Below are positions 2,261-26,519 of a DNA stretch of 31,932 nucleotides, in pieces; the stretch's first letter is position 1; every line of letters starts with the position of its first letter. The DNA is from an uncultured bacterium (GTDB lineage: Bacteria > Cyanobacteriota > Cyanobacteriia > FACHB-46), in the NCBI GenBank assembly GCA_966211855.1, contig CBIHQL010000001.1, positions 1 through 31,932 on the forward strand, in the 5' to 3' direction. A model generated the notes under the pieces. The model did no database searches. It saw only the letters and a program-made list of their open reading frames with translations, and was not told where the DNA came from. A program made the translations under genes and the position numbers.

Positions 2261-3310
2261 ATGAGCAGCCCTTCCAACAAATCATCGAGCTCTAAGTTAC
2301 AGCTATCAGTACAAACTATTGTTCTGAGTGCGATCGCTTGGGCTGTTTTAGCCCTGTTGTTCTTTCTACTATTTAGCGTGTCGCCGCCCGGAGAAGAACG
2401 ACCTCGCTGGTATTCGATTGGCACCTATATTTTTGAAGAGGTTGCTTACCTGGGGGCAGCCTTCTTGTGTTTCCGCAACTGGCGCAGCCCCCAAATTGTC
2501 AGTGGTCGTAATGTTTGGCTAGGCATTGGCTTAGGGATGTTGTCCTACTTTTTGGGCAACTTGCTGTTGGGCTATTGGGAGTTAGTGTGGCAGCAAGAAC
2601 CTGCCGTTTCGCCCGGAGATTTTTTCTTTGTTGCTACCTATCTCTTTTTAGGATGGGGGATGCTCTTGGCAGTGCTGACCCGCCGCCTAAACTTAGAGGC
2701 TTGGCAATGGGGCATTGTCGGGGCGATCGCCTCTATAGGGGTAGCGTTGGCTTGGTTTGTGTCGTCTCCAGTTGAAGCGCAAGCTGTGCAACCTTGGGGG
2801 ATGCAACCCGCGATCGCTCAAACCGCTCCAGCTAGACCTGCGGCGACTCCAAAGGTTAGCCCAAAAGCCACGACAGCTCCCGCACTCAAAACCGCTCCAG
2901 CCTCACCAGCGGCTACCTCTACGGCTCCAGGTACTACAGCCGAAACGACCGCATCAGTGCCGACCTGGGTAACTGACCTGGAGACAACGCTGGCTCCCCT
3001 CGAAGAGACCCTAAGCTGGTTTTATATTGTCAGTGATGTGTTTCTGCTAATTATTGCCACGATTTTGCTATTGGCTTTTTGGGGTGGTCGCTTCTCACAG
3101 TCTTGGCGGATGATTGCAGCAGCAGCTTTCTCGCTCTATATTGCCGATATCTGGTTTAACTATGCTCAAAATCGAGTCGCTGACTACCAGACAGGTAGCT
3201 TGCCCGAAGTATTTTGGGTGTTTAGCGGGGTACTTTTTGGCATTGGGGCAGCGTTGGAATATGACTTGTCTACGCGATCGCGACGCACATCAGGACGTAA
3301 ACGTGCTTAG
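2261..3310 (+). CDS. Polytopic membrane protein (~7-8 TM) with a Pro/Ala/Thr-rich loop, function unknown
   Basis: 349-aa ORF with multiple hydrophobic helices, a low-complexity PAT stretch at about aa 175-235 and a basic C-tail. Confidence 0.8.
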   Translation: MSSPSNKSSSSKLQLSVQTIVLSAIAWAVLALLFFLLFSVSPPGEERPRWYSIGTYIFEEVAYLGAAFLCFRNWRSPQIVSGRNVWLGIGLGMLSYFLGNLLLGYWELVWQQEPAVSPGDFFFVATYLFLGWGMLLAVLTRRLNLEAWQWGIVGAIASIGVALAWFVSSPVEAQAVQPWGMQPAIAQTAPARPAATPKVSPKATTAPALKTAPASPAATSTAPGTTAETTASVPTWVTDLETTLAPLEETLSWFYIVSDVFLLIIATILLLAFWGGRFSQSWRMIAAAAFSLYIADIWFNYAQNRVADYQTGSLPEVFWVFSGVLFGIGAALEYDLSTRSRRTSGRKRA

Positions 3311-3493: not shown

Positions 3494-4549
3494 ATGACTC
3501 CAAGAAAACTGTCTGAGTCGGATAAACAAGACATCCTGAATCTATATCAACAACCCGGAGAGACTACCTCGACCTTGGCTGACCGTTACGGTGTGAGTAA
3601 CACGACCATTGGTCGAGTCTTGAAGAGTCTGCTGTCAGAACAAGACTACGAAGCTTTAGTCCAACAAAAGCGGACGGTTCGTCCTCAAAACAGCGCTTCC
3701 GAAGCAGTGAACGAGTTGCCTTTAGCGGTTGAGGATGTGGCAGTCGCTGGGGTGGAAGTAGCACCGCCGATAGACGACCCACAACCTAGTCAGGTGGAAC
3801 TAACCCAACCTCCAGAGCCGATTGTGACTACGACTCCGCGCCCAGTCTTGGCTGATCCCAAACGGCGAGTCCGGAAGCGATCTACGGTGGGAGATCAAGC
3901 GAATGGCGAAGATGAGAATTCAACCGAATCTCAGTTACAGTTACTCGATTTGGCAACTAACTCTGCAGCATCGACCAGCGCTGAGGTAATTACCCCTGAG
4001 CCCAAGCCGGAAGCAGCGATCGCCCACAAAGCTGAATCAGAGGAGTTGGCTGAGCTATCAGCAGATTTACGACCCTCCAAGGCAACCGCTTTTGATGACT
4101 TAGAAGAAGATTTAGACGACGATGATGATCTCGATGATTTAGACGAGGACGATCTCGATGATGAGGACGACGATGATTTAGACGATGATGAGGACGACGA
4201 TGAAGTTTCGTTCTTAGGGGCACAGCTTCAGGGCACAGCTTCGGTACAGGTTTTGCCGCTAGCAGAGGCGACCATTCCCAAAACGTTTTACCTCGTCGTC
4301 GATCGCATGGCTGAGCTAATCACTCGTCCACTGCAAGACTTTGGTGATTTGGGGCAGATCCCAACCGCAGAGACTCAAGCTAAAACCCTGCCAATTTTTG
4401 ACAATCACCGGGTGGCTCGGCGGTTTTCAAAGCGTAATCAGCGAGTGATTAAGGTACCGGATGGACGGATGTTGCACAAAGTTGGGCCTTACTTACAAGC
4501 CAAAGGGATCACGCGACTGTTGATTGACGGTCAGGTATACGGCCTGTAG
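3494..4549 (+). CDS. HTH-domain protein with a long acidic disordered region and a compact C-terminal domain
   Basis: N-terminal HTH-like segment KLSESDKQDILNLY..TTSTLADRYGVSNTTIGRVLK; D/E tract at about aa 201-238; ~105-aa folded-looking C-terminus. Confidence 0.8.
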   Translation: MTPRKLSESDKQDILNLYQQPGETTSTLADRYGVSNTTIGRVLKSLLSEQDYEALVQQKRTVRPQNSASEAVNELPLAVEDVAVAGVEVAPPIDDPQPSQVELTQPPEPIVTTTPRPVLADPKRRVRKRSTVGDQANGEDENSTESQLQLLDLATNSAASTSAEVITPEPKPEAAIAHKAESEELAELSADLRPSKATAFDDLEEDLDDDDDLDDLDEDDLDDEDDDDLDDDEDDDEVSFLGAQLQGTASVQVLPLAEATIPKTFYLVVDRMAELITRPLQDFGDLGQIPTAETQAKTLPIFDNHRVARRFSKRNQRVIKVPDGRMLHKVGPYLQAKGITRLLIDGQVYGL

Positions 4550-4571
4550 GCGATCGCATCAATCTTGAAAT

Positions 4572-4605
4572 CTAACCCCCAGCCCCTTCCATACAAGGAA
4601 GGGGC
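4572..4605 (+). repeat. REP-like element: C-rich leader CTAACCCCCA plus 9-bp hairpin GCCCCTTCC/GGAAGGGGC
   Basis: Lies between convergent stop codons (4549/4613). Near-identical in design to the element at 11792-11832 on the minus strand. Confidence 0.7.
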
Positions 4606-4612
4606 AAAATTT

Positions 4613-5074
4613 TTACGTGTGGAGTTGCTGGTGCAGTTCTTCGGCAACTCGCTTGAGACGGCGGAGTTGAGCTTGCATATCCTCTTGAGTCCAGCGAGCG
4701 GCAAATTTATCGAAGCCAAACCGGATCAGAGGATTGGGAATCTCAAATTCAAATCGATTCACTAGAAACGTGCCTTGATCGTTCGGGCGGCACTCCCAGC
4801 GATCGCGGCCCCGAAAAAAGCCTTGAAATGACCAGATCACCAAACCTGGCTCTCGCTCAGCGACAGTACTCTCAAGCGTTGGCTGCCAAAAAGGAATTTG
4901 AATTGTAAATCGGCTGCGGCTGCCCACTTGGGTGCTCCACTCACCGATCGGCTCACAGCGAAGCGCAGGATTCAGCCAGCGGTGCATTAAGTTGAGGTCG
5001 GTGATGCAGCGCTCAACGGCAGTGGCACTGGCATTGATTTGAACAGACTGCTCGAAACTTTGTAGCGGTGACAT
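4613..5074 (-). CDS. SRPBCC/polyketide cyclase-dehydrase family protein
   Basis: 153-aa ORF with START-like pattern FEQSVQINASATAVERCITDLNLMHRWLNP and a C-terminal helix MQAQLRRLKRVAE. Confidence 0.8.
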   Translation of the reverse strand: MSPLQSFEQSVQINASATAVERCITDLNLMHRWLNPALRCEPIGEWSTQVGSRSRFTIQIPFWQPTLESTVAEREPGLVIWSFQGFFRGRDRWECRPNDQGTFLVNRFEFEIPNPLIRFGFDKFAARWTQEDMQAQLRRLKRVAEELHQQLHT

Positions 5075-5404
5075 GCTGATGTAGCTGATGGGCTGCTAAG
5101 GCATCCTATCGTTACTTTAGCGATCGATGGCGCGATCGCGATTGGGATCTAGAAATTTGGTTAAAAATCATCAAATCTTAGGCTTTTAAGTCTTAATTCT
5201 CCATAAAGGTAGATGAAAAAGCGAGGGTTGGGGCTTACGTTAGCAATGTTCGATTTAGACCCTTTTGGAACCTCCCTTAGGTCTTATCTGCTTAGCGATC
5301 GCTGGGCCGACAAAGTCTTGGGTACGCATATTCTCAGATTTTTCTCTATCGAAAGCAATCTGTATTTTGGTTTCAGAACTGACATCAGGTCAGGATAAAA
5401 GGCT

Positions 5405-7183
5405 ATGGATCACACTTGGCAAGGATTAATACCGCTCTGGTCAATACCGGAGTCGATGCATCATTTGGGTTGGATGCTAGCCCAAGCGACCCCGACTCCT
5501 GCCCCAGTTCCTCTGACCGAGACTGAAGCCCCCACAGGTATACAAGCATGGGGACAGAGCCTTGGGCTTGACTTAGGAGACTCAATTTCCAACCTACTCG
5601 TAGCATTGTGCATTTTAGTCTTTGGATTGCTGATTGCAGCAATTTTAGGCGCGATCGCTCGCTGGTTGATGGGTCGCACCGATCTCGACAATAAGCTAGC
5701 CGCACGCGTGATGCGCAGCCAACCCGGCACTCGTCCCCCTCAAGTCGAGAAATGGGTTGGAGATGCCGTCTTCTGGTTGGTGGTTATTTTCACGATTGTG
5801 GCGTTCTTGCAAGCCTTGAATTTGCAAGCCGTTTCGCAACCTCTGAATAGCTTCCTCGAACAAATTCTGCTGTTTTTACCTCGCCTCCCAGGGGCACTCA
5901 TCCTGCTGGGCTTGGCTTGGCTGATTGCGACCTTTGTCAAACTGATCGTTACCCAGGGGTTGCGTACCTTTGGGTTAGATGAACGGTTAAGCGATCAAGT
6001 TACAGATCCGGTGGACACTGGAGATGCGACATTTGGCGCTGAACCCCCACGAACAATTGAACCCCCACGAGAAGCACCTTTTTCGCTCAGCGAGACGATT
6101 GGGAATGCGCTCTACTGGTTCATTTTTCTGTTGTTTTTGCCATCGATCCTCAACACTCTGCAACTTCAGGGCACGTTAGAACCTGTCCAGCAGCTCCTTG
6201 ATGAAATTCTGTCGATTTTGCCCAACATCTTAGCAGCGGTGCTAATTGGGGCGGTCGGCTGGTTTATTGCCCAGGTTGTGCGGCGGATTGTGACTAACCT
6301 TTTGGCAGCGACAGGCACCGATCGCATTGGTACACGCATTGGGTTGAACCGTGCTGCGGGTGGGCAATCGCTGTCTTGGATTATTGGCACGATTGTCTAT
6401 GTACTGATTTTGATCCCCACGGCGATCGCAGCGTTGAATGCCTTGCAAATTCAGGCAATTTCGGGGCCAGCGATTGTGATGCTGACCCAGATTCTCAACG
6501 CGATTCCGCAGATCTTTACGGCGGCCTTGATTCTCGTGCTCGCTTATGTGATTGGTCGCTTTGTGGCTGATCTGGTGACAAACATTTTGACGAGCCTTGG
6601 CTTTAACAATATTTTTTATTGGTTAGGGCTGCAAACGTCGCCTTATACACCTCCTGCGCCCCGCATGAGTGACGAGATTCCGGTTATTCAAGAGCTGGGT
6701 CAAGTCTCACCACCGACCACACCCAGAACGCGCACGCCATCTGAGGTGATGGGCATTGTGACGCTGATTGGCATCTTGCTATTTGCCACCGTCGCCGCCA
6801 CGAATGTGCTGAATTTCGCCGCCCTGACTGCGATCGTCACTGGGTTGCTGCTAGTCTTTGGTCGCATTCTTGCGGGGCTAGTGGTGTTTGCGATCGGCCT
6901 CTATCTGGCAAATTTGGCATTCAACCTGATTAGCAGCTCTGGTAATGCTCAAGCGCGAATTTTGGCGCAAACTGCCCGGATTGCCATCATCGCCTTTGTC
7001 TCAGCCATGGCGTTGCAACAAATGGGAATCGCACCCAATATTGTCAACTTGGCATTTGGCCTGCTGCTGGGAGCCATTGCAGTCGCGATCGCCTTGGCCT
7101 TTGGTTTGGGTGGTCGAGAGATTGCTGCCCAACAAACAAGAGAATGGCTCAATTCCTTTAAGGAAAAGGGTAATCAACGCTAA
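5405..7183 (+). CDS. CmpX/MscS-related multi-repeat membrane protein (mechanosensitive channel TM-helix repeats)
   Basis: 592 aa, repeated units of type LPxI.xAxxIxxxGWxIAxxV...L...G.D, ending in a MscS-like Gly/Ala helix NLAFGLLLGAIAVAIALAFGLGG. Confidence 0.78.
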   Translation: MDHTWQGLIPLWSIPESMHHLGWMLAQATPTPAPVPLTETEAPTGIQAWGQSLGLDLGDSISNLLVALCILVFGLLIAAILGAIARWLMGRTDLDNKLAARVMRSQPGTRPPQVEKWVGDAVFWLVVIFTIVAFLQALNLQAVSQPLNSFLEQILLFLPRLPGALILLGLAWLIATFVKLIVTQGLRTFGLDERLSDQVTDPVDTGDATFGAEPPRTIEPPREAPFSLSETIGNALYWFIFLLFLPSILNTLQLQGTLEPVQQLLDEILSILPNILAAVLIGAVGWFIAQVVRRIVTNLLAATGTDRIGTRIGLNRAAGGQSLSWIIGTIVYVLILIPTAIAALNALQIQAISGPAIVMLTQILNAIPQIFTAALILVLAYVIGRFVADLVTNILTSLGFNNIFYWLGLQTSPYTPPAPRMSDEIPVIQELGQVSPPTTPRTRTPSEVMGIVTLIGILLFATVAATNVLNFAALTAIVTGLLLVFGRILAGLVVFAIGLYLANLAFNLISSSGNAQARILAQTARIAIIAFVSAMALQQMGIAPNIVNLAFGLLLGAIAVAIALAFGLGGREIAAQQTREWLNSFKEKGNQR

Positions 7184-7230
7184 TTTCACTGACCGCAGAT
7201 TTGCATGGGCTTCCTGGGCGAATACTTGCG

Positions 7231-7302
7231 GCCCCCTCCCGTCCCCCAACTTTTGGGGAAGCTCCGTTCAAGTTCCCCCCAAAGTTGGGGGGTTAGGGGG
7301 GC
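7231..7302. repeat. Inverted doublet of REP-like leader-plus-hairpin elements forming one long palindrome
   Basis: Left arm GCCCCCTCCCGTCCCCCAACTTTTGGGGAA versus reverse complement of right arm GCCCCCCTAACCCCCCAACTTTGGGGGGAA. Confidence 0.72.
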
Positions 7303-7339
7303 CAATCTCAGTACGTGCAGGAAGTCTCAAAAACCATTC

Positions 7340-7381
7340 TCCCTAACGCCCTCTTCTACTGAGTTAGAAGGGGGATTTTTT
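7340..7381 (+). repeat. REP-like element CCCTAAC plus 10-bp hairpin, followed by a T-run (may act as terminator)
   Basis: Stem 7349-7358 pairs with 7365-7374 (one G-U), followed by ATTTTTT; located between convergent genes. Confidence 0.55.
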
Positions 7382-7395
7382 AGGGCTGTATGGGT

Positions 7396-8478
7396 TTAGT
7401 CACCGAGATAAATGCCCAACCCGCGAGCAGTTTTGACCAAGGTGCCATGCTGATTAACCGCACGATATTGAGCGATCGCTTCGGTAATGGGTACACTGAC
7501 CACCCGCCGATTTTGCCAGGTCACCATCTGGTCATACTCTCCGGCTGCAATTAGATCAACGGCTGCGACCCCAAACGCTGAAGCTACCAGGCGATCGAGC
7601 GGTGAAGGAGTGCCGCCCCGCTGCACGTGCCCCAAGACGGTGACTCGAGTTTCTGCGCCACTGCAAGCACAAATGCGATCGGCTAAATAATCTCCAATCC
7701 CGCCATAGCGACAGTGACCAAAGCGATCGGTGATGCACACAGATTCGCCAGTCTCGGTGCGTACAGCCTCTGAGACAATCACCAGCGAGTAGTTTTTGCC
7801 TTGCTCTTGGCGTTCTTTGAGCTTGTGGCAAACATTGGCGATCGTATAAGGAATTTCGGGGATCAAGATTACGTCAGCACCCCCAGCAATGCCCGCTGTA
7901 ATCGCAATGTGTCCAGCATCGCGGCCCATGACCTCTAAGATAATCACACGACTGTGACTGGCAGCAGTGAAGTGCAAGCGATCGAGGGCTTCGGTGGCGG
8001 TGTTGACTGCTGTATCAAAGCCAATTGAGTGTTCTGTGACACCCACATCGTTGTCAATCGTTTTGGGGATTGCAATCAAATTAAGGTTGCCTTGCTGAGC
8101 GATCCGCCGCAAAATTGCCATGCTGCCGTCACCCCCAATGCCGATGATGGCGTCTAAGCCGAGCTGATGATAGCCGTCGATAATGTCTTGGGAGCGATCG
8201 CACACCGTTCCATCAGGCATCGGAAACGCAAACGGGTTGCCCTTATTGGTCGTGCCTAAGATCGTGCCGCCCGCAACTAATAGCGGATCCACTTTTTCGG
8301 GGTAAAGCTGCACGGCCTGGGGTGGGTGGTTCATCAACCCTTGTGTTGCTTGGCGAATCCCCAAAACTTCCCAGCCGTAACCACCTACGGCTCGACAAAC
8401 CACGGCACGGATTGCGGCATTCAAGCCCGCACAATCACCACCACTGGTTAAAATTCCAATGCGCTTCTGCTCGCCCAT
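7396..8478 (-). CDS. pfkA: 6-phosphofructokinase, PfkA family
   Basis: IGILTSGGDCAGLN, GIGGDGS, PKTIDND, EVMGRDAG and LGHVQRGG motifs. Start moved to ATG 8478 (MGEQKRIG). Confidence 0.95.
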   Translation of the reverse strand: MGEQKRIGILTSGGDCAGLNAAIRAVVCRAVGGYGWEVLGIRQATQGLMNHPPQAVQLYPEKVDPLLVAGGTILGTTNKGNPFAFPMPDGTVCDRSQDIIDGYHQLGLDAIIGIGGDGSMAILRRIAQQGNLNLIAIPKTIDNDVGVTEHSIGFDTAVNTATEALDRLHFTAASHSRVIILEVMGRDAGHIAITAGIAGGADVILIPEIPYTIANVCHKLKERQEQGKNYSLVIVSEAVRTETGESVCITDRFGHCRYGGIGDYLADRICACSGAETRVTVLGHVQRGGTPSPLDRLVASAFGVAAVDLIAAGEYDQMVTWQNRRVVSVPITEAIAQYRAVNQHGTLVKTARGLGIYLGD

Positions 8479-8724
8479 ATCGCCTACTGCTGCTGGAGCT
8501 TGGTGTGAGGTTAGGCAGTTACAGTACCGCTGCGTGGCGTTAATTGATGAGAATGCAAGATTCACTTTAGATTTGTTTGCCAACTCCACACCCCGATATG
8601 AGCAAGTTGCATCAAGTCTGAAGCTGAGCGATCGCTACATGGGGACTGGTATTGTCAGCGTTAGTATGGCAATATTGCGCTTCGAGACAGATCAGTGCAG
8701 GGTAAACAGGCGCAGGCAACAACT

Positions 8725-9660
8725 ATGTCAGATTTAGCAGAGCAGTGGAGCATTCCCGTTGCGCCAGAGGGTTTTAAGTCAGGGTTCGTCGGCATTATTG
8801 GTCGCCCGAATGTTGGCAAGTCTACGTTGATGAATCATCTGGTGGGGCAGAAGATTGCCATCACCTCCCCGGTCGCTCAAACGACGCGTAATCGCCTGTT
8901 AGGAATTCTGACTACGCCTGACACTCAGTTTATTTTTGTCGATACGCCTGGAATTCATAAACCGCATCACCAATTGGGCGAAGTCTTAGTCAAAAATGCC
9001 CAAATTGCCATTCACTCGGTCGATGTGGTGCTGTTTGTAGTCGATAGCTCGGTAGAGGCAGGGGGCGGCGATCGCTTCATTATCGACCTGCTGAGCAAAA
9101 CTGAAACCCCGGTGATTTTGGGGCTAAATAAAATTGACCAGCAACCCGACGATGCCGAAGCCTTAGACGAAAGTTATCGCGCCTTAGCAGAACCCTTTGG
9201 TTGGCCTGTCGTGAAATTCTCCGCCTTGACCGGAGAAGGTTTGGAACCGCTACAGACCTTGCTTCGCGATCGCCTTGAACCTGGCCCTTACTACTACCCG
9301 CCCGATCTGGTCACCGACCAACCTGAGCGTTTCATCATGGGCGAATTAATCCGCGAACAAATTTTGCTGCTGACTCGCGAAGAAGTACCGCACTCGGTCG
9401 CTATTTCGATTGATCGGGTGGAAGAAGAACCCAAGATCACCCGCTTGCTAGCTACCATTCACGTCGAGCGGCAATCGCAAAAAGGCATCATTATTGGCAA
9501 AGGCGGCAGTATGCTCAAAGCGATCGGCAGTGCAGCGCGAGAGCAAATGCAAAAGCTGATTGCGGGCAAAGTTTATTTAGAGTTGTTTGTGAAAGTGCAA
9601 CCGAAGTGGCGACAATCTCGAACTCGCCTCGCAGAACTCGGTTATCGCGTGGAGGAATAG
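8725..9660 (+). CDS. era: GTPase Era
   Basis: G1 GRPNVGKS, G2 QTTR, G3 DTPG, G4 NKID and KH motif IIIGKGG. ATG 8725 is the preferred start. Confidence 0.97.
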
Positions 9661-10592
9661 TGGAGCAAATTGCACGGTATCGAGGGGCTTTGCTGGGGCT
9701 GGCAGCAGGAGATGCGATCGGCACCACTCTAGAATTTGAACAACCGGGCACCTTTACCCCCATCACTGACATGGTCGGAGGTGGCCCTTTTAACCTCCAG
9801 CCCGGACAGTGGACAGACGACACCTCTATGGCACTCTGCCTTGCCGAAAGCTTAATCGAGTGCCAAGGGTTTGATCCGGTGCATCAGCTCGAAAAATATA
9901 ACCGTTGGTATCGCGAAGGCTACCTCAGTAGTACGGGGCGCTGCTTTGATATTGGCAATGCCACCCGCGCCGCCCTGTTGAAATTTGAAGCGACGAGAAA
10001 GCCTGATTGCGGGTCTACCGATCCCCGTTCCGCAGGCAATGGCTCGATCATGCGTTTGGCTCCGGTGCCGTTGTTTTATGCTGAACGACCGAAGGAGGCG
10101 ATCGCGAAATCTGCCGAAAGTTCTCGCACGACCCATGCTGCCCCAACCACAATTGATGCCTGCCGCTATTTGGGAGCGCTGATTGTGGGTGCTGTTCAAG
10201 GAGTCAGCAAAGCAGAACTTCTCTCAGATCATTACAGCCCGATTCCTGATTACTGGAGCGATCAGCCCCTCGTTCCTGAAATCGCTGAGATTGCCAGAGG
10301 TTCTTTCAAGCAACGCCAACCCCCAGAAATTCAAGGGTCTGGGTACGTGGTCAAATCGCTAGAAGCAGCACTGTGGGCCTTCCACAACAGCGACTCTTTC
10401 CGCGAAGGCTGTCTCTTAGCAGTGAATTTGGGCGATGATGCCGACACCACCGCAGCCGTGTATGGTCAACTGGCAGGGGCCTTTTACGGAGAAGCCGGAA
10501 TTCCAGCCGAGTGGCGATCGCGGTTGGCATACCGAGAGTTGATCGAATCTCTTGCCGATCAACTATTTCACCTCTCGCGATCGCTCTCCTAA
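9660..10592 (+). CDS. ADP-ribosylglycohydrolase (DraG/ARH family)
   Basis: GDAIG, WTDDT, GNGSIMR and GDDADTT motifs. Likely start is GTG 9660, overlapping the era TAG by 1 nt, with GGAGG at 9651-9655. Confidence 0.92.
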
Positions 10593-13536: not shown

Positions 13537-15795
13537 CTATTCTGAGGGCAATAAGACCTTGACTCTGGCAAACTTCAAGCCTGTTACCCCTTGTAAGGGT
13601 TCGACATTGCCCATTTCAAGCGCGGTGCCTATCCAGCCTTCCCGTCTTAAGTAATGCAGATATTGTTGATATTCCGCCCACTCTTCATCGGTGGAATAGA
13701 CCAAGGTCAACATTCCAGGTTGCGTGATCCGATTTTTTGATTGTTGGTCTAAGGCTTTATCAATGCGCTTTTTCACGATTTCGTAGCGGGTATCGCGCGT
13801 TCCTTTGACATCAAACAAGCGTTCGGTGTTGGTGTCATGAAAAATATCAACGGTTAAATCCTGAACCAACACTAAATGGGTCACCTGCAGTTTGGTTTGG
13901 TGATGCTTTTCTAGCGTTAGAGCGGCTCGCGCACAATCACACACTGCCCGCAACTGCTCATAGCGCAGGCTCCGCAAGTGAAACGTGCAAAACTTCAGAT
14001 CAATTGAGGCACCAGCATAAATCATGTGATCAATGCCGTCGGTGCATTCAATATCGCAATAATGCGGCGTAATTTTCTGCATGCGTTCCTGCCAACGTTC
14101 CCAGGTTTCGCGCAGCACGGTATTAATCTCGGCGATCATCTGGTCATATTGGGCACGGGCGATGTAGACACTTTTGTGCTCATTGTCACAGGCGACCCGA
14201 TAGGCTTCTACGGCAGCTTGAGCCGCAGGATTGCATTGGGCAAAGTAATTAAGGTGAATTTCTAAGCGATCGCTTAAATATTTGAGCACCGTAATTTCAG
14301 CGTCTACAGTAATGCCCGCTTCAAGTTGCTGAATGCGATCGCCCAAATCTAGCCGCAGTTGCTCACCAAGGGCAGTTTCTTGAGCTTGGCATACAGCTTC
14401 TACCACAGCCAAACCCAGCCGCAATTGTGTCAACAAATCAGTTTGAATGGCTCGGTTACGCTCTTCTGAAGAACTGCGAATATCCGAGATGCCGTAGAGA
14501 GGGTAGACATTGCTAAACACCACTGGCTCAGGCGGTAGCCCCCAACTTTGCCGCTCAGCTTCTTGGAGAAACCGCCACTCAACGGCTGGATGGATATTGT
14601 GAATCGTGGTTAAGCGCTGCTGCACGGCTTGTCGCAAAGCCACTGTGAGCGGGGCAATCAGTTCGGTAGCGTGTTGACAGTCGATCGGGTCAAAGTGGCA
14701 AGGGCGATCGCTCGTCAGCCCGACAATGCCAGCCAACTGTCGCGAACCCGGCATCGAGGTCATCGACTGCACAACCAACGGAATCAACAGCAGCGATCGC
14801 ACGCCTTGGGCTAACAAATGCTGTTCACACTCTGTTTGGCAGTTGATACTGAGGTCAGAAACATTCCAAATGCGATTTTGCTCGGCTGCCCGCAAGAAAT
14901 GTGACCCTTGCAACTGCTTCATCGCGTAAGCAGCGACTTCTAACTCCTCATACTCAGTGCCAATAAATAGTCGGGCTTGTTCACCCTCAGCGCTGAGAAT
15001 GATACTGTTGTCGGCTCGAAACAGCGATCGCAACGCTTGATTGACTTGCTGAAACTTTTCAGGCCGCAAAATCGACTCGCGATCGATCAACAAATGGGTC
15101 AAACGGCGAATTTTTTCTCGCAGCGTAATATCGACTCCTTCTAGAAACAGCACCCCGTTCAACTGGTAATCATCGAGTGAGAGTTGCTGCTCTAGTACTT
15201 GCCACTGCTGAGGATCGCTGAGACGAGCAATAATTTCTGATTCACTGAGCTGTTGCCAATCTGACCAGTCAGTTTGCATCGTTGCTAACGGAGTCACCTG
15301 CACCCCAGCCGAGCGCAACGACATTAAAACAAACCGACCTTCTTGCTCTACTTGATCTATGGCTGGGAAGTGAACTGTAATGGTCTGCTCTAGCCCACGC
15401 CAGTGAGTGGGTACAGCCGGACATACGCTGCGCAACACCGCATAAATGATGTGTCGCCGATAAAGTTGTTGCACCGCTAAGCGATCGTTGGCGGGTATGC
15501 GATCGAGCCACTGAGTTGTGACGCTATTGTGTGGGGTTACTCCCCCTAACAACTGGCAAAAAGAGTCGGTAGCATATTCAAAGGTTAAAGTTTGGGGAGC
15601 GATCGCAGCTAATAATACCTGGCTTTGTTGCTGCCATACCTGCAACCACTGTTCTGCGTGAGTGAACTCTTGGGGTGCGTCACTCATGGGTTCTTCTGGT
15701 TGCGGCAACAGCTCATCCCAAAACTCATTCTCCTGGTAGGGTGCGATCGTAGACTGATTAGGCTCCAGTTTAATGGCAGACTCAGGAGATGACAT
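13537..15795 (-). CDS. PAS-like plus GAF sensor protein with a putative divergent class III nucleotide cyclase C-terminal domain
   Basis: PAS-like pieces (EYATDSFCQLLG, WLDRIPANDR, GVDIT) and GAF (GVRSLLLIPL..GIVGLTS). The C-terminal motif series is given in the findings; that domain call is inference. Confidence 0.8.
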   Translation of the reverse strand: MSSPESAIKLEPNQSTIAPYQENEFWDELLPQPEEPMSDAPQEFTHAEQWLQVWQQQSQVLLAAIAPQTLTFEYATDSFCQLLGGVTPHNSVTTQWLDRIPANDRLAVQQLYRRHIIYAVLRSVCPAVPTHWRGLEQTITVHFPAIDQVEQEGRFVLMSLRSAGVQVTPLATMQTDWSDWQQLSESEIIARLSDPQQWQVLEQQLSLDDYQLNGVLFLEGVDITLREKIRRLTHLLIDRESILRPEKFQQVNQALRSLFRADNSIILSAEGEQARLFIGTEYEELEVAAYAMKQLQGSHFLRAAEQNRIWNVSDLSINCQTECEQHLLAQGVRSLLLIPLVVQSMTSMPGSRQLAGIVGLTSDRPCHFDPIDCQHATELIAPLTVALRQAVQQRLTTIHNIHPAVEWRFLQEAERQSWGLPPEPVVFSNVYPLYGISDIRSSSEERNRAIQTDLLTQLRLGLAVVEAVCQAQETALGEQLRLDLGDRIQQLEAGITVDAEITVLKYLSDRLEIHLNYFAQCNPAAQAAVEAYRVACDNEHKSVYIARAQYDQMIAEINTVLRETWERWQERMQKITPHYCDIECTDGIDHMIYAGASIDLKFCTFHLRSLRYEQLRAVCDCARAALTLEKHHQTKLQVTHLVLVQDLTVDIFHDTNTERLFDVKGTRDTRYEIVKKRIDKALDQQSKNRITQPGMLTLVYSTDEEWAEYQQYLHYLRREGWIGTALEMGNVEPLQGVTGLKFARVKVLLPSE

Positions 15796-16060
15796 AGAGG
15801 TGCAATAATTTGGCGCTACAGTCTATTGTTAGCATCCCAGCATCCAAATAATTGTTACTGTTACCGACTTTTGCTTATCCTTAGGGCAAGGGGTTTGCAA
15901 AACTTTGTAAGCGATCACTACACTCAACGCTCAGCAGCAGCCTCAGAATTCCTCACTGCACCAGAAACGAAAGCAGTTAATCTGGGTAGATGGGGAAGCG
16001 GCTACCTGCTGGCGTACCTCCAGACTTAGAACTTCTCATCTGCACACTACGATTTAAGTT

Positions 16061-17521
16061 ATGTTTGACGCGCTCGCTGATCGCCTAGAGGTTGCCTGGA
16101 AGAAACTACGGGGCCAGGACAAAATTTCTGAAACCAACATTCAGGAAGCCCTGCGAGAGGTTCGTCGGGCTTTACTAGAGGCCGATGTTAACCTTCAAGT
16201 CGTCAAAGACTTCATTGCCGAGTTGCAAACAAAAGCACTTGGGGCTGAGGTAATCTCTGGCGTTCGGCCCGACCAGCAGTTTATCAAGATCGTCTACGAT
16301 GAGCTGGTTGAGGTCATGGGGGAAACTAACGTTCCCCTGGCAGAAGTTGACACTGCTCCCACCATTATCTTGATGGCTGGTTTGCAAGGGACAGGTAAAA
16401 CGACTGCAACGGCTAAACTCGCCCTGCATTTACGCAAAGAAAATCGCAGCACCCTTTTGGTCGCCACTGACGTTTATCGCCCCGCCGCGATCGACCAGTT
16501 GATCACCTTGGGTAAACAAATTGACATTCCCGTCTTTGAGATGGGTTCGGATGCTGACCCCGTAGAAATTGCCCGCCAAGGGGTTGAGCGTGCCAGAGCC
16601 GAAGGCATCAACACCGTGATCATCGACACGGCAGGCCGTCTGCAAATTGACCAAAATATGATGTCGGAGCTAGCCCGCATCAAAGAAACCGTCCAACCCC
16701 ACGAAACGCTGCTGGTGGTAGACGCGATGACGGGTCAAGAAGCCGCCAATCTAACCCGCACCTTCCATGAGCAGATTGGCATCACGGGTGCAATTCTCAC
16801 CAAAATGGATGGGGATACTCGTGGGGGCGCGGCGCTCTCGGTGCGGCGCATCTCTGGGCAACCGATCAAATTTATCGGGGTTGGCGAAAAAGTAGACGCA
16901 CTGCAACCGTTTTACCCAGATCGGATGGCCTCCCGCATCTTGGGCATGGGTGACGTGCTCACCTTGGTAGAAAAAGCCCAAGAAGCCGTTGATTTATCAG
17001 ATGCCGAAAAGATTCAAGAGAAGATTCTCACGGCTCAATTTGATTTTACTGACTTCCTCAAGCAGACCCGCTTGCTGAAAAACATGGGGTCGCTGGGCGG
17101 GATCATGAAGCTGATTCCTGGGATGAACAAAATCAGCAATGAGCAGCTCCAGCAAGGCGAGCAACAGCTCAAACGGGCTGAGTCGATGATCAACTCAATG
17201 ACTGTCGAAGAGCGCCGCAACCCAGATTTGCTTTCTAGCTCACCTAGCCGTCGTCGTCGCGTGGCTCGGGGGGCAGGGTATGGCGAGTCAGATGTGGCGA
17301 AGTTGGTGAGTGACTTCCAAAAGATGCGATCGCTGATGCAGCAGATGGGTCAAGGCAACTTCCCCGGAATGCCAGGAATGTTTGGGGGTGGCCCTTTTGG
17401 GGGTGGCCCTGGTTATGGTGGCAACCCAGCTTCACAACCCGGATGGCGTGGTTATCCAGGGGGTGCTCCAGCTAAGAAAAAGAAAAAAGAGAAGAAGAAA
17501 AAAGGCTTTGGATCTTTGTAG
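16061..17521 (+). CDS. ffh: Signal recognition particle protein Ffh
   Basis: GLQGTGKTT, DTAGRLQ, TKMDGDTRGG, M domain, and a Gly/Lys-rich tail. Confidence 0.98.
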   Translation: MFDALADRLEVAWKKLRGQDKISETNIQEALREVRRALLEADVNLQVVKDFIAELQTKALGAEVISGVRPDQQFIKIVYDELVEVMGETNVPLAEVDTAPTIILMAGLQGTGKTTATAKLALHLRKENRSTLLVATDVYRPAAIDQLITLGKQIDIPVFEMGSDADPVEIARQGVERARAEGINTVIIDTAGRLQIDQNMMSELARIKETVQPHETLLVVDAMTGQEAANLTRTFHEQIGITGAILTKMDGDTRGGAALSVRRISGQPIKFIGVGEKVDALQPFYPDRMASRILGMGDVLTLVEKAQEAVDLSDAEKIQEKILTAQFDFTDFLKQTRLLKNMGSLGGIMKLIPGMNKISNEQLQQGEQQLKRAESMINSMTVEERRNPDLLSSSPSRRRRVARGAGYGESDVAKLVSDFQKMRSLMQQMGQGNFPGMPGMFGGGPFGGGPGYGGNPASQPGWRGYPGGAPAKKKKKEKKKKGFGSL

Positions 17522-25670: not shown

Positions 25671-26519
25671 CTAGTGAAATTTATACTTTAAGTTATTGCC
25701 CTCAACGACAATGACTCCTGAAGGTGTTTTAATGTAAAGCCGTCCATTTGCCATACGGGCAACAGATTCTAAGGCAGGCCGTGTATTTGGAGTGGGCTGT
25801 CTTGCTGGGGTGGAGGTAGAGACCTTTGCATCTATAGGGGTGGAGGCTGTCGGCTCAGAAGTAGTAGCAGCCTGCCATGATGCTGAATCAAACTGCGGAG
25901 GATTAACGACAGGTACGGTGGGTTGTGTGGGAGCTGAAGTTTGGGGTAGTTGCTGCTGTGACTCTGATTCTTTACTCTCGGGCGGGATAGAACTCAACCA
26001 GACGAGAGAATCAGTAATCGTAATCACGATCTCTGCGACCAAAGTTTTGATATACAACACGCCTTCGTGGCAGATAATCTCGCGGATGGGATACCACTGT
26101 TGGCGCTTTTCGACAAAGATCAAAACATTGAGCTGCATGGTGCGAGCCCAATTTCGACCATTACGAGTCCACCACTCCCGCCATAACAGCCGAGCCTCTG
26201 TGTAGTTGATATGGTAACCAGGCGGCACAGAGCGACGGAGATACTCCATAGTGCTACTCTGGCTAGCTGTGGGAGTCGGCGTAAAACCGTATTCCTGTAG
26301 AACTTGATGCAGTACTCCCCAGTACTCTGAGCTTTGCTTCGCAATCACTGCTGATACTTGCCCTGCGGTGAGCTTGGCGGTTGCGATTAAGCCACTCCGC
26401 TTCGCCAGCAATTGTGCTCCGTTAAATGTTGACTCAACTCTTAAGTTTTGATTAGACGCTAAAGTTGCCTCACCACTGACAAATTGGCGAATCAAGGCAA
26501 TATCGTCGAGAAGAGCCAT
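25671..26519 (-). CDS. Hypothetical protein with duplicated G-x-LYIKT beta motif
   Basis: 282-aa ORF; globular N-terminal part, P/S/T-rich linker and short C-terminal domain. Confidence 0.75.
   Translation of the reverse strand: MALLDDIALIRQFVSGEATLASNQNLRVESTFNGAQLLAKRSGLIATAKLTAGQVSAVIAKQSSEYWGVLHQVLQEYGFTPTPTASQSSTMEYLRRSVPPGYHINYTEARLLWREWWTRNGRNWARTMQLNVLIFVEKRQQWYPIREIICHEGVLYIKTLVAEIVITITDSLVWLSSIPPESKESESQQQLPQTSAPTQPTVPVVNPPQFDSASWQAATTSEPTASTPIDAKVSTSTPARQPTPNTRPALESVARMANGRLYIKTPSGVIVVEGNNLKYKFH

Follow-up and report, generated by a model that had tools for sequence, protein, structure and literature searches.

A cyanobacterial PAS/GAF protein with a predicted, highly divergent class III nucleotide cyclase homology domain

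Class III nucleotide cyclases are the main source of cyclic AMP and cyclic GMP (cAMP, cGMP), and of cyclic CMP and cyclic UMP (cCMP, cUMP) in the Pycsar system, in which the cyclase PycC has a class III-type fold and the PycTM effector senses cCMP or cUMP. The canonical enzymes require a head-to-tail homodimer with the active sites at the interface, and the CyaB1/CyaB2 type comprises GAF-regulated cyanobacterial cyclases. Here we describe a single-copy gene for a protein of 752 amino acids (aa) in a 31,932-nucleotide stretch of DNA (the window; contig CBIHQL010000001.1 of assembly GCA_966211855.1) from an uncultured cyanobacterium of the FACHB-46 lineage. A sequence-only reading had proposed that positions 13537–14604 of the reverse strand, which encode aa 398–752 plus the stop codon, hold a cryptic, sensor-regulated class III cyclase. 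Structure prediction indicates that the protein is a highly divergent variant of this known kind of enzyme, unrecognised by the sequence libraries used.

Predicted fold and conserved residues of the C-terminal domain

None of the sequence libraries recognised the C-terminal domain, in agreement with the earlier remark that such proteins are annotated only as GAF proteins. Pfam matched PF01590 (E 1.4e-6, 29.3 bits against a curated cut-off of 22.4), and beyond GAF nothing relevant was returned by Pfam, NCBIfam, PADLOC, phmmer against the PDB or a search of the PDB with a profile built from 61 aligned sequences. The protein had no PADLOC match, and no cyclase was found among the matches of the profile search against PDB sequences.

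AlphaFold2 (AF2) modelled aa 395–752 with a predicted local distance difference test score (pLDDT) of 94 and a predicted template modelling score of 0.89. In a Foldseek comparison of this model with the PDB, all 50 best matches were class III adenylyl or guanylyl cyclases, including Cya2 (2w01), CyaC (1wc5), Rv1900c (1ybt), soluble and receptor guanylyl cyclases and AC9. The top match was 1cs4_B (E 3.3e-4, template modelling (TM) score by target 0.58), and the 50 best spanned TM scores of 0.5–0.58; they contained no GGDEF, Cas10 or polymerase palm domain and no chain described as a Pycsar cyclase. The model keeps the element order of class III cyclases, beta1-alpha1-beta2-beta3-alpha2-beta4-beta5-alpha4-beta6-alpha5-beta7-beta8, and the cyclase fold proposed beforehand was borne out by this comparison. 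An hhalign alignment with eight canonical cyclase domains of the same genome was colinear and paired SDIR with sDIrGfT, though not significantly.

The translation places the eight motifs of the sequence-only reading, together with D438, D586, D589 and K675-K676-R677, where they had been described, and in the AF2 model each motif lies on the secondary-structure element previously assigned to it. NIHPAVEWRF leads into the pre-catalytic helix (403–417), and FSNVYPLYGISDIR forms strand 1 (425–440), with D438 at its C-terminal end. The motif beginning QMIAEINTV is helix alpha1 (546–573), followed by the beta2-beta3 hairpin YCDIECTDGIDHMIYAG (strands 579–583 and 587–594), whose turn holds T585-D586. 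Helix alpha2 covers aa 604–632, and beta4 and beta5 lie within 637–653, LQVTHLV being the strand at 637–643. FDV and RYEIVKKRID correspond to a short strand and then a helix at 667–680, MLTLVY is beta6 (695–700), alpha5 spans 703–718, and the last motif is the terminal hairpin (722–731 and 741–747).

Foldseek values of this size are modest (E 3e-4 at best, TM scores as given above), and the sequence profiles were non-significant; the domain could on these grounds be an unrelated alpha/beta fold whose motif and Foldseek matches are coincidental. We consider such a coincidence extremely improbable. One family supplied all 50 best matches, the full element order is kept, and Asp is conserved at both catalytic positions; moreover, an independent Atlas structure look-up for a look-alike protein also found Guanylate_cyc clusters among its structural neighbours. 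Because every best match is a class III cyclase and conservation within the family is highest at the motif residues, the resemblance is more than chance, and the C-terminal half is very probably a class III cyclase homology domain by its predicted fold.

Homologues of aa 395–752 numbered more than 3,500 at 90% clustering, with 895 representatives at 50% identity. In an alignment (A1) of 61 diverse C-terminal domains from several phyla, 32–72% identical to the query, the positions singled out beforehand proved to be conserved: D438 and D586 are each kept in 60/61 sequences, position 589 is D or E in 60/61, K675 is invariant, and K676 and R677 are kept in at least 90%. G587 is present in 61/61. 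The other invariant residues are R446, D453, Y532, Q573, H578, Y593, G595, L641, L740 and R744, and R440, S442, S443, R670, E672, D679, K680, R689 and T691 are also kept in at least 90%. The same level was reached among the homologues by H402, P403, V405, W407 and F409 in the pre-catalytic helix region and by G736 and G739 in the terminal hairpin. The C-terminal domain is conserved to a much greater degree than the sensor half: mean column identity was 50% within it versus 28% over the whole protein, a pattern to be expected if it is an enzymatic output domain. The N-terminal tail is poorly conserved.

The positions that specify the base and stabilise the transition state are non-canonical in A1, as had been read from the query. 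Residue 584, which aligns with the base-specifying Lys, varies among the 61 sequences (K in 20, A in 10, R in 8, S in 7 and C in 4). Helix alpha4 is conserved and reads RYEIxKKRIDK; several conserved Arg and Lys residues could substitute for the canonical pair. The nearest Asn candidate is position 668, one residue out of register, which is D668 in cyanobacteria and N668 in other phyla.

The fold topology predicts that D438 and D586 should be neighbours in space, because a ferredoxin-like beta-alpha-beta-beta-alpha-beta core brings the C-terminal end of beta1 up against the point where beta3 starts. In the favoured explanation, the protein would be a cytoplasmic sensor in which a phytochrome-like PAS/GAF pair acts through a long signalling helix on a class III cyclase homology domain that has diverged strongly. 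By analogy with canonical class III cyclases, D438 (SDIRxSS, compare FxDIxGFT) and D586 (TDGxD, compare IGDA) would bind two divalent metal ions, and S442, S443, R446, the basic alpha4 helix (R670, K675, K676, R677) and R744 would hold the triphosphate. A triggered sensor would then lead to conversion of a nucleoside triphosphate into a nucleotide messenger. As the cyclase fold keeps the two candidate metal-binding Asp residues, the protein is probably an undescribed sensor-controlled nucleotide-signalling enzyme.

Between beta1 and alpha1, both the domain model and the full-length AF2 model place four helices (442–471, 475–493, 497–519 and 523–535), at the site of the helical insert of about 105 aa that had been anticipated at 445–550. 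Three residues of this insert, R446, D453 and Y532, belong to the invariant set. No standalone relatives were found when the insert alone was used as query, and it is specific to the GAF-plus-hidden-cyclase family, where it probably forms a lid or an interface. A 116-aa protein of Trichocoleus desertorum (P0272) was matched only by the insert region, with 77% identity over 64% of the query; this probably represents either a fragment of a gene or an open reading frame (ORF) that was called wrongly.

The HD-PycTM partner in other phyla and the case for activity

The gene is found in Cyanobacteriota, Bacteroidota, Ignavibacteriota, Gemmatimonadota, Methylomirabilota/Rokubacteria, Poribacteria, Eremiobacterota and other phyla. 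Of the 201 cyanobacterial genomes sampled, 17 carry it, and it was found in none of the 26 genomes of one large family and none of the 82 of another; the named cyanobacterial carriers are filamentous and non-heterocystous (Oscillatoria, Microcoleus, Leptolyngbyaceae, Nodosilinea, Spirulina, Limnospira and Coleofasciculus). Members from cyanobacteria grouped as one clade (support 100/100) in a maximum-likelihood tree, and the branches that part it from all others are about 1.5 and 1.6 changes per site long. Cyanobacterial members have H653 where the others have F, and R667/D668 where the others have Y/N. These residues fall where beta5 ends and alpha4 begins, the region with which canonical cyclases recognise the base and ribose.

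Outside cyanobacteria the family is accompanied by a membrane protein that combines an HD phosphohydrolase domain with PycTM, an effector domain of the Pycsar type. All five non-cyanobacterial carriers examined have one PF18967-positive gene each, above the family cut-off in every case, and Pfam confirmed HD plus PycTM in both of the PF18967-positive proteins scanned. Among 151 Bacteroidota genomes, a PycTM protein occurred in 23/23 carriers versus 39/128 non-carriers, figures that are counts of related, non-independent genomes rather than a statistical test. In these carriers, PycTM was encoded within 2 kb in 9/23 and within 15 kb in 14/23. The linkage fits a cyclic-nucleotide product for the family and suggests a small-molecule product that is both made and degraded.

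Two arrangements were observed among the Bacteroidota. One genome (G246) carries the GAF-cyclase gene twice, along with a pair of PycTM genes. In another, the HD-PycTM gene (L117:2773–3963, forward strand) and the GAF-cyclase gene (3960–6257, reverse strand) are convergent, and their 3' ends overlap by 4 bases. An open frame of 1383 aa, seen in a single Bacteroidota genome, was set aside as a stop-poor, high-GC frame rather than a demonstrated fusion. A weak HD-domain match at a contig end of the source genome was also dropped, being not conserved among the other cyanobacterial carriers.

Alternatively, the enzyme might perform a different chemistry on a palm fold, with the Asp pair serving nucleotidyl transfer and the product being other than a 3',5'-cyclic nucleoside monophosphate. 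Examples would be an oligonucleotide, linear or cyclic, a cyclic nucleotide of the 2',3' or pyrimidine kind, or a target that becomes nucleotidylated. In favour of this, the family retains the two metal Asp residues but has other residues where the base and ribose are read, the clades differ at 653 and 667/668, the large family-specific insert adjoins the active site in the model, and the PycTM partner found elsewhere belongs to a family described as a Pycsar effector protein. However, the best structural neighbours are all adenylyl or guanylyl cyclases, with GGDEF, Cas10 and polymerase palm domains missing from the top 50; we consider a palm-fold enzyme of this other kind improbable.

Several results weigh against an active cyclase-type enzyme. 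PF00211 gave no Pfam match at E up to 1, either with the whole protein or with aa 395–752. The hhalign probability was 1–2%, a non-significant value with the insert included or removed; the homology is thus visible in structure and not in sequence. Neither the Asn/Arg pair of the canonical transition state nor the residues that specify the base (Lys/Asp or Glu/Cys) can be recognised in the alignments. No homodimer was predicted (interaction prediction score from aligned errors, 0.00), a score that by itself is no evidence for or against a dimer. Furthermore, PycTM (PF18967) was not found in the source genome, where the best match had an E value of 0.15, or in five other cyanobacterial carriers; the 17 carriers among the 201 cyanobacterial genomes have no overlap with the six PycTM-positive genomes. 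A partner for the GAF-cyclase gene was likewise not found in the window.

The missing Asn/Arg and specificity residues, together with the dimer score, would fit a pseudo-cyclase, that is, a cyclase fold without catalysis that serves as a ligand-binding or protein-interaction output module under PAS/GAF control. Non-catalytic cyclase-like folds exist, AdvA of Acinetobacter being a precedent (bioRxiv 10.64898/2026.04.03.716176), and the source genome already has 10 canonical PF00211 cyclase domains. Against this stand the two candidate metal Asp residues, each present in all but one of the 61 homologues from several phyla, and a dozen more polar residues that are invariant or nearly so at active-site-equivalent elements, residues of the kind that pseudo-enzymes usually lose. 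The HD-PycTM linkage elsewhere, with its suggestion of a product that is made and degraded, also argues against a silent domain. A pseudo-cyclase is therefore rather unlikely in our judgement, although it deserves more weight than a different chemistry. On balance, we favour an active, sensor-regulated nucleotide-messenger synthase; its metal binding, its catalytic activity, its dimer and the kind of product it makes are inferred by analogy.

The HD-PycTM partnership is not universal in the family, as the cyanobacterial clade shows. We tentatively raise the doubtful idea that the family makes a non-canonical nucleotide second messenger in a housekeeping role and that the cyanobacterial clade makes, or signals through, something unlike the Bacteroidota-type enzymes. 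If this were true, a different messenger in the cyanobacterial clade, which has lost HD-PycTM or never had it, would amount to an unrecognised signalling pathway in filamentous cyanobacteria. The lineage contrast, with HD-PycTM always present in Bacteroidota carriers and never in cyanobacterial ones, offers a practical starting point in the search for receptors and products. The family (about 900 clusters at 50% identity) escapes surveys of nucleotide signalling because it is annotated only as "GAF domain-containing". If the enzyme is active, a sensor-controlled messenger synthase with non-canonical substrate-reading residues would be added to filamentous cyanobacteria.

Sensor half, feature coordinates and genomic context

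The full-length AF2 model (pLDDT 88.7) consists of a tail, a PAS-like domain, GAF, a long helix and the cyclase-like domain, so that the N-terminal half, previously read as PAS-GAF, was modelled as PAS-like plus GAF. The PAS-like domain has strands at 60–65, 72–75, 139–143, 154–161 and 166–169, plus helices. Together with GAF it matched phytochrome PAS-GAF bidomains (E about 1e-6, TM scores 0.36–0.42). The best full-length match in the PDB was 6FHT, an engineered phytochrome-regulated adenylate/guanylate cyclase chimera (E 4e-9), followed by phytochrome PAS-GAF modules. A bilin sensor is not supported, because no Cys is conserved across the family; moreover, a PHY domain was not seen in the full-length model, and an NKFDE-type cyclic nucleotide motif was not present when the GAF sequence was read.

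The GAF domain of the query has a C319-x3-C323 pair (14827–14841, reverse strand). C319 is found in 12/19 and C323 in 9/19 cyanobacterial members, and both are absent in other phyla; the pair could serve the cyanobacterial clade alone as a site for redox chemistry or for a cofactor.

Table 1. Predicted and matched features of the GAF-cyclase gene and its product, with window coordinates
Feature	Residues (aa)	Coordinates	Strand	Basis
Whole gene, 752 aa (tail, PAS-like, GAF, signalling helix, cyclase-like domain)		13537..15795	-	ORF and translation
Predicted disordered N-terminal tail	1-46	15658..15795	-	pLDDT <50
PAS-like alpha/beta domain, without Pfam match	57-170	15286..15627	-	Full-length model
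GAF domain	248-381	14653..15054	-	Pfam PF01590
Pre-catalytic helix with conserved IHPxVEWRF and long linker helix 370-398	370-417	14545..14688	-	Models
Strand beta1 ending S-D438-I-R, candidate first metal-binding Asp	425-440	14476..14523	-	Model strand 31-46
Four-helix insert between beta1 and alpha1	442-535	14191..14472	-	AF2 models
Helix alpha1	546-573	14077..14160	-	Model helix 152-179
Beta2-beta3 hairpin, T585-D586-G587-x-D589, candidate second metal-binding Asp	579-594	14014..14061	-	Model strands 185-189, 193-200
FDVxG strand and helix alpha4, place of canonical Asn/Arg helix	661-680	13756..13815	-	Model helix 272-286
Terminal beta7-beta8 hairpin, Q735-G736...G739-L740...R744	722-747	13555..13632	-	Model strands 328-337, 347-353

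The gene had been put forward as the best candidate for an undescribed system in the window. No description of the family was found in literature searches. As to a system, the gene stands alone among housekeeping genes (aroB, an aminotransferase, ffh, a KH protein, phoH, era and pfk) with no multi-gene system around it. At related cyanobacterial loci no conserved operon partner was found, and the nearby histidine-kinase and TPR clusters are generic. The sole recurrent cyanobacterial neighbour is a divergently transcribed ffh (SRP54), at 21 loci and here at 15796–16060 and 16061–17521 on the forward strand; this arrangement may reflect inherited synteny rather than a functional link.

Some relatives of the protein are listed with weak or faint matches to PF27174 "YeeD" (Pfam 38.1); yeeD of B. 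subtilis is no more than a putative toxin-antitoxin gene (PMC9973331). In a Hyphomicrobiales metagenome-assembled genome, the GAF-cyclase gene occurs as tandem copies (L091:3087–5621 and 5678–8197, forward strand).

Elsewhere in the window, an era-like GTPase ORF (8695–9660, forward strand) and an ADP-ribosylglycohydrolase ORF (9606–10592, forward strand) overlap by 55 bases as listed, and the true start codon of the latter probably lies further downstream. The 592-aa protein encoded at 5405–7183 (forward strand) contains the conserved TM helix of mechanosensitive channels (PF05552) three times, with no further Pfam match at E up to 0.001. Three ORFs of 282–351 aa (2261–3310 and 3494–4549, forward strand; 25671–26519, reverse strand) matched none of the Pfam families at E up to 1e-5; the first two, which are adjacent, on the same strand and of similar length, may be paralogues.

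Comparison with class III cyclases and Pycsar

The C-terminal domain shares its predicted fold and element order with class III cyclases (PF00211; structures 1CS4, 1CJK, Cya2 2W01, CyaC 1WC5 and Rv1900c 1YBT), and has in common with them a conserved pre-catalytic helix and a Gly-rich terminal hairpin. The canonical D-I-x-G-F-T at the end of beta1 corresponds to D-I-R-x-S-S here, beginning at D438, and the canonical I-G-D-A corresponds to D586 beside an invariant Gly in the beta2-beta3 turn. At the position of the canonical Asn/Arg pair on alpha4, the query has the helix R-Y-E-I-x-K-K-R-I-D-K. It lacks a recognisable Lys/Asp or Glu/Cys specificity pair, the KGKG hairpin and a PF00211 match, and it carries about 95 extra residues, folded as four helices, between beta1 and alpha1.

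The order of PAS/GAF sensor, long helix and C-terminal cyclase is common to the query, the CyaB1/CyaB2-type enzymes and 6FHT. In contrast to these, the query has no PHY domain, no family-wide bilin Cys and no NKFDE-type motif, and its catalytic domain is far more divergent. The Bacteroidota-type members of the family have the same architecture, the same D438, D586, K675 and R744 set and a C-terminal domain 35–44% identical to that of the query. They differ in their association with HD-PycTM (23/23 genomes versus 0/17 cyanobacterial ones), and the cyanobacterial clade is separate and differs at 653 and 667/668. Compared with Pycsar, in which PycC is paired with PycTM, the query lies in a housekeeping context rather than a defence island, with neither a PADLOC match nor PycTM found; outside cyanobacteria, however, its family likewise travels with a PycTM-domain protein.

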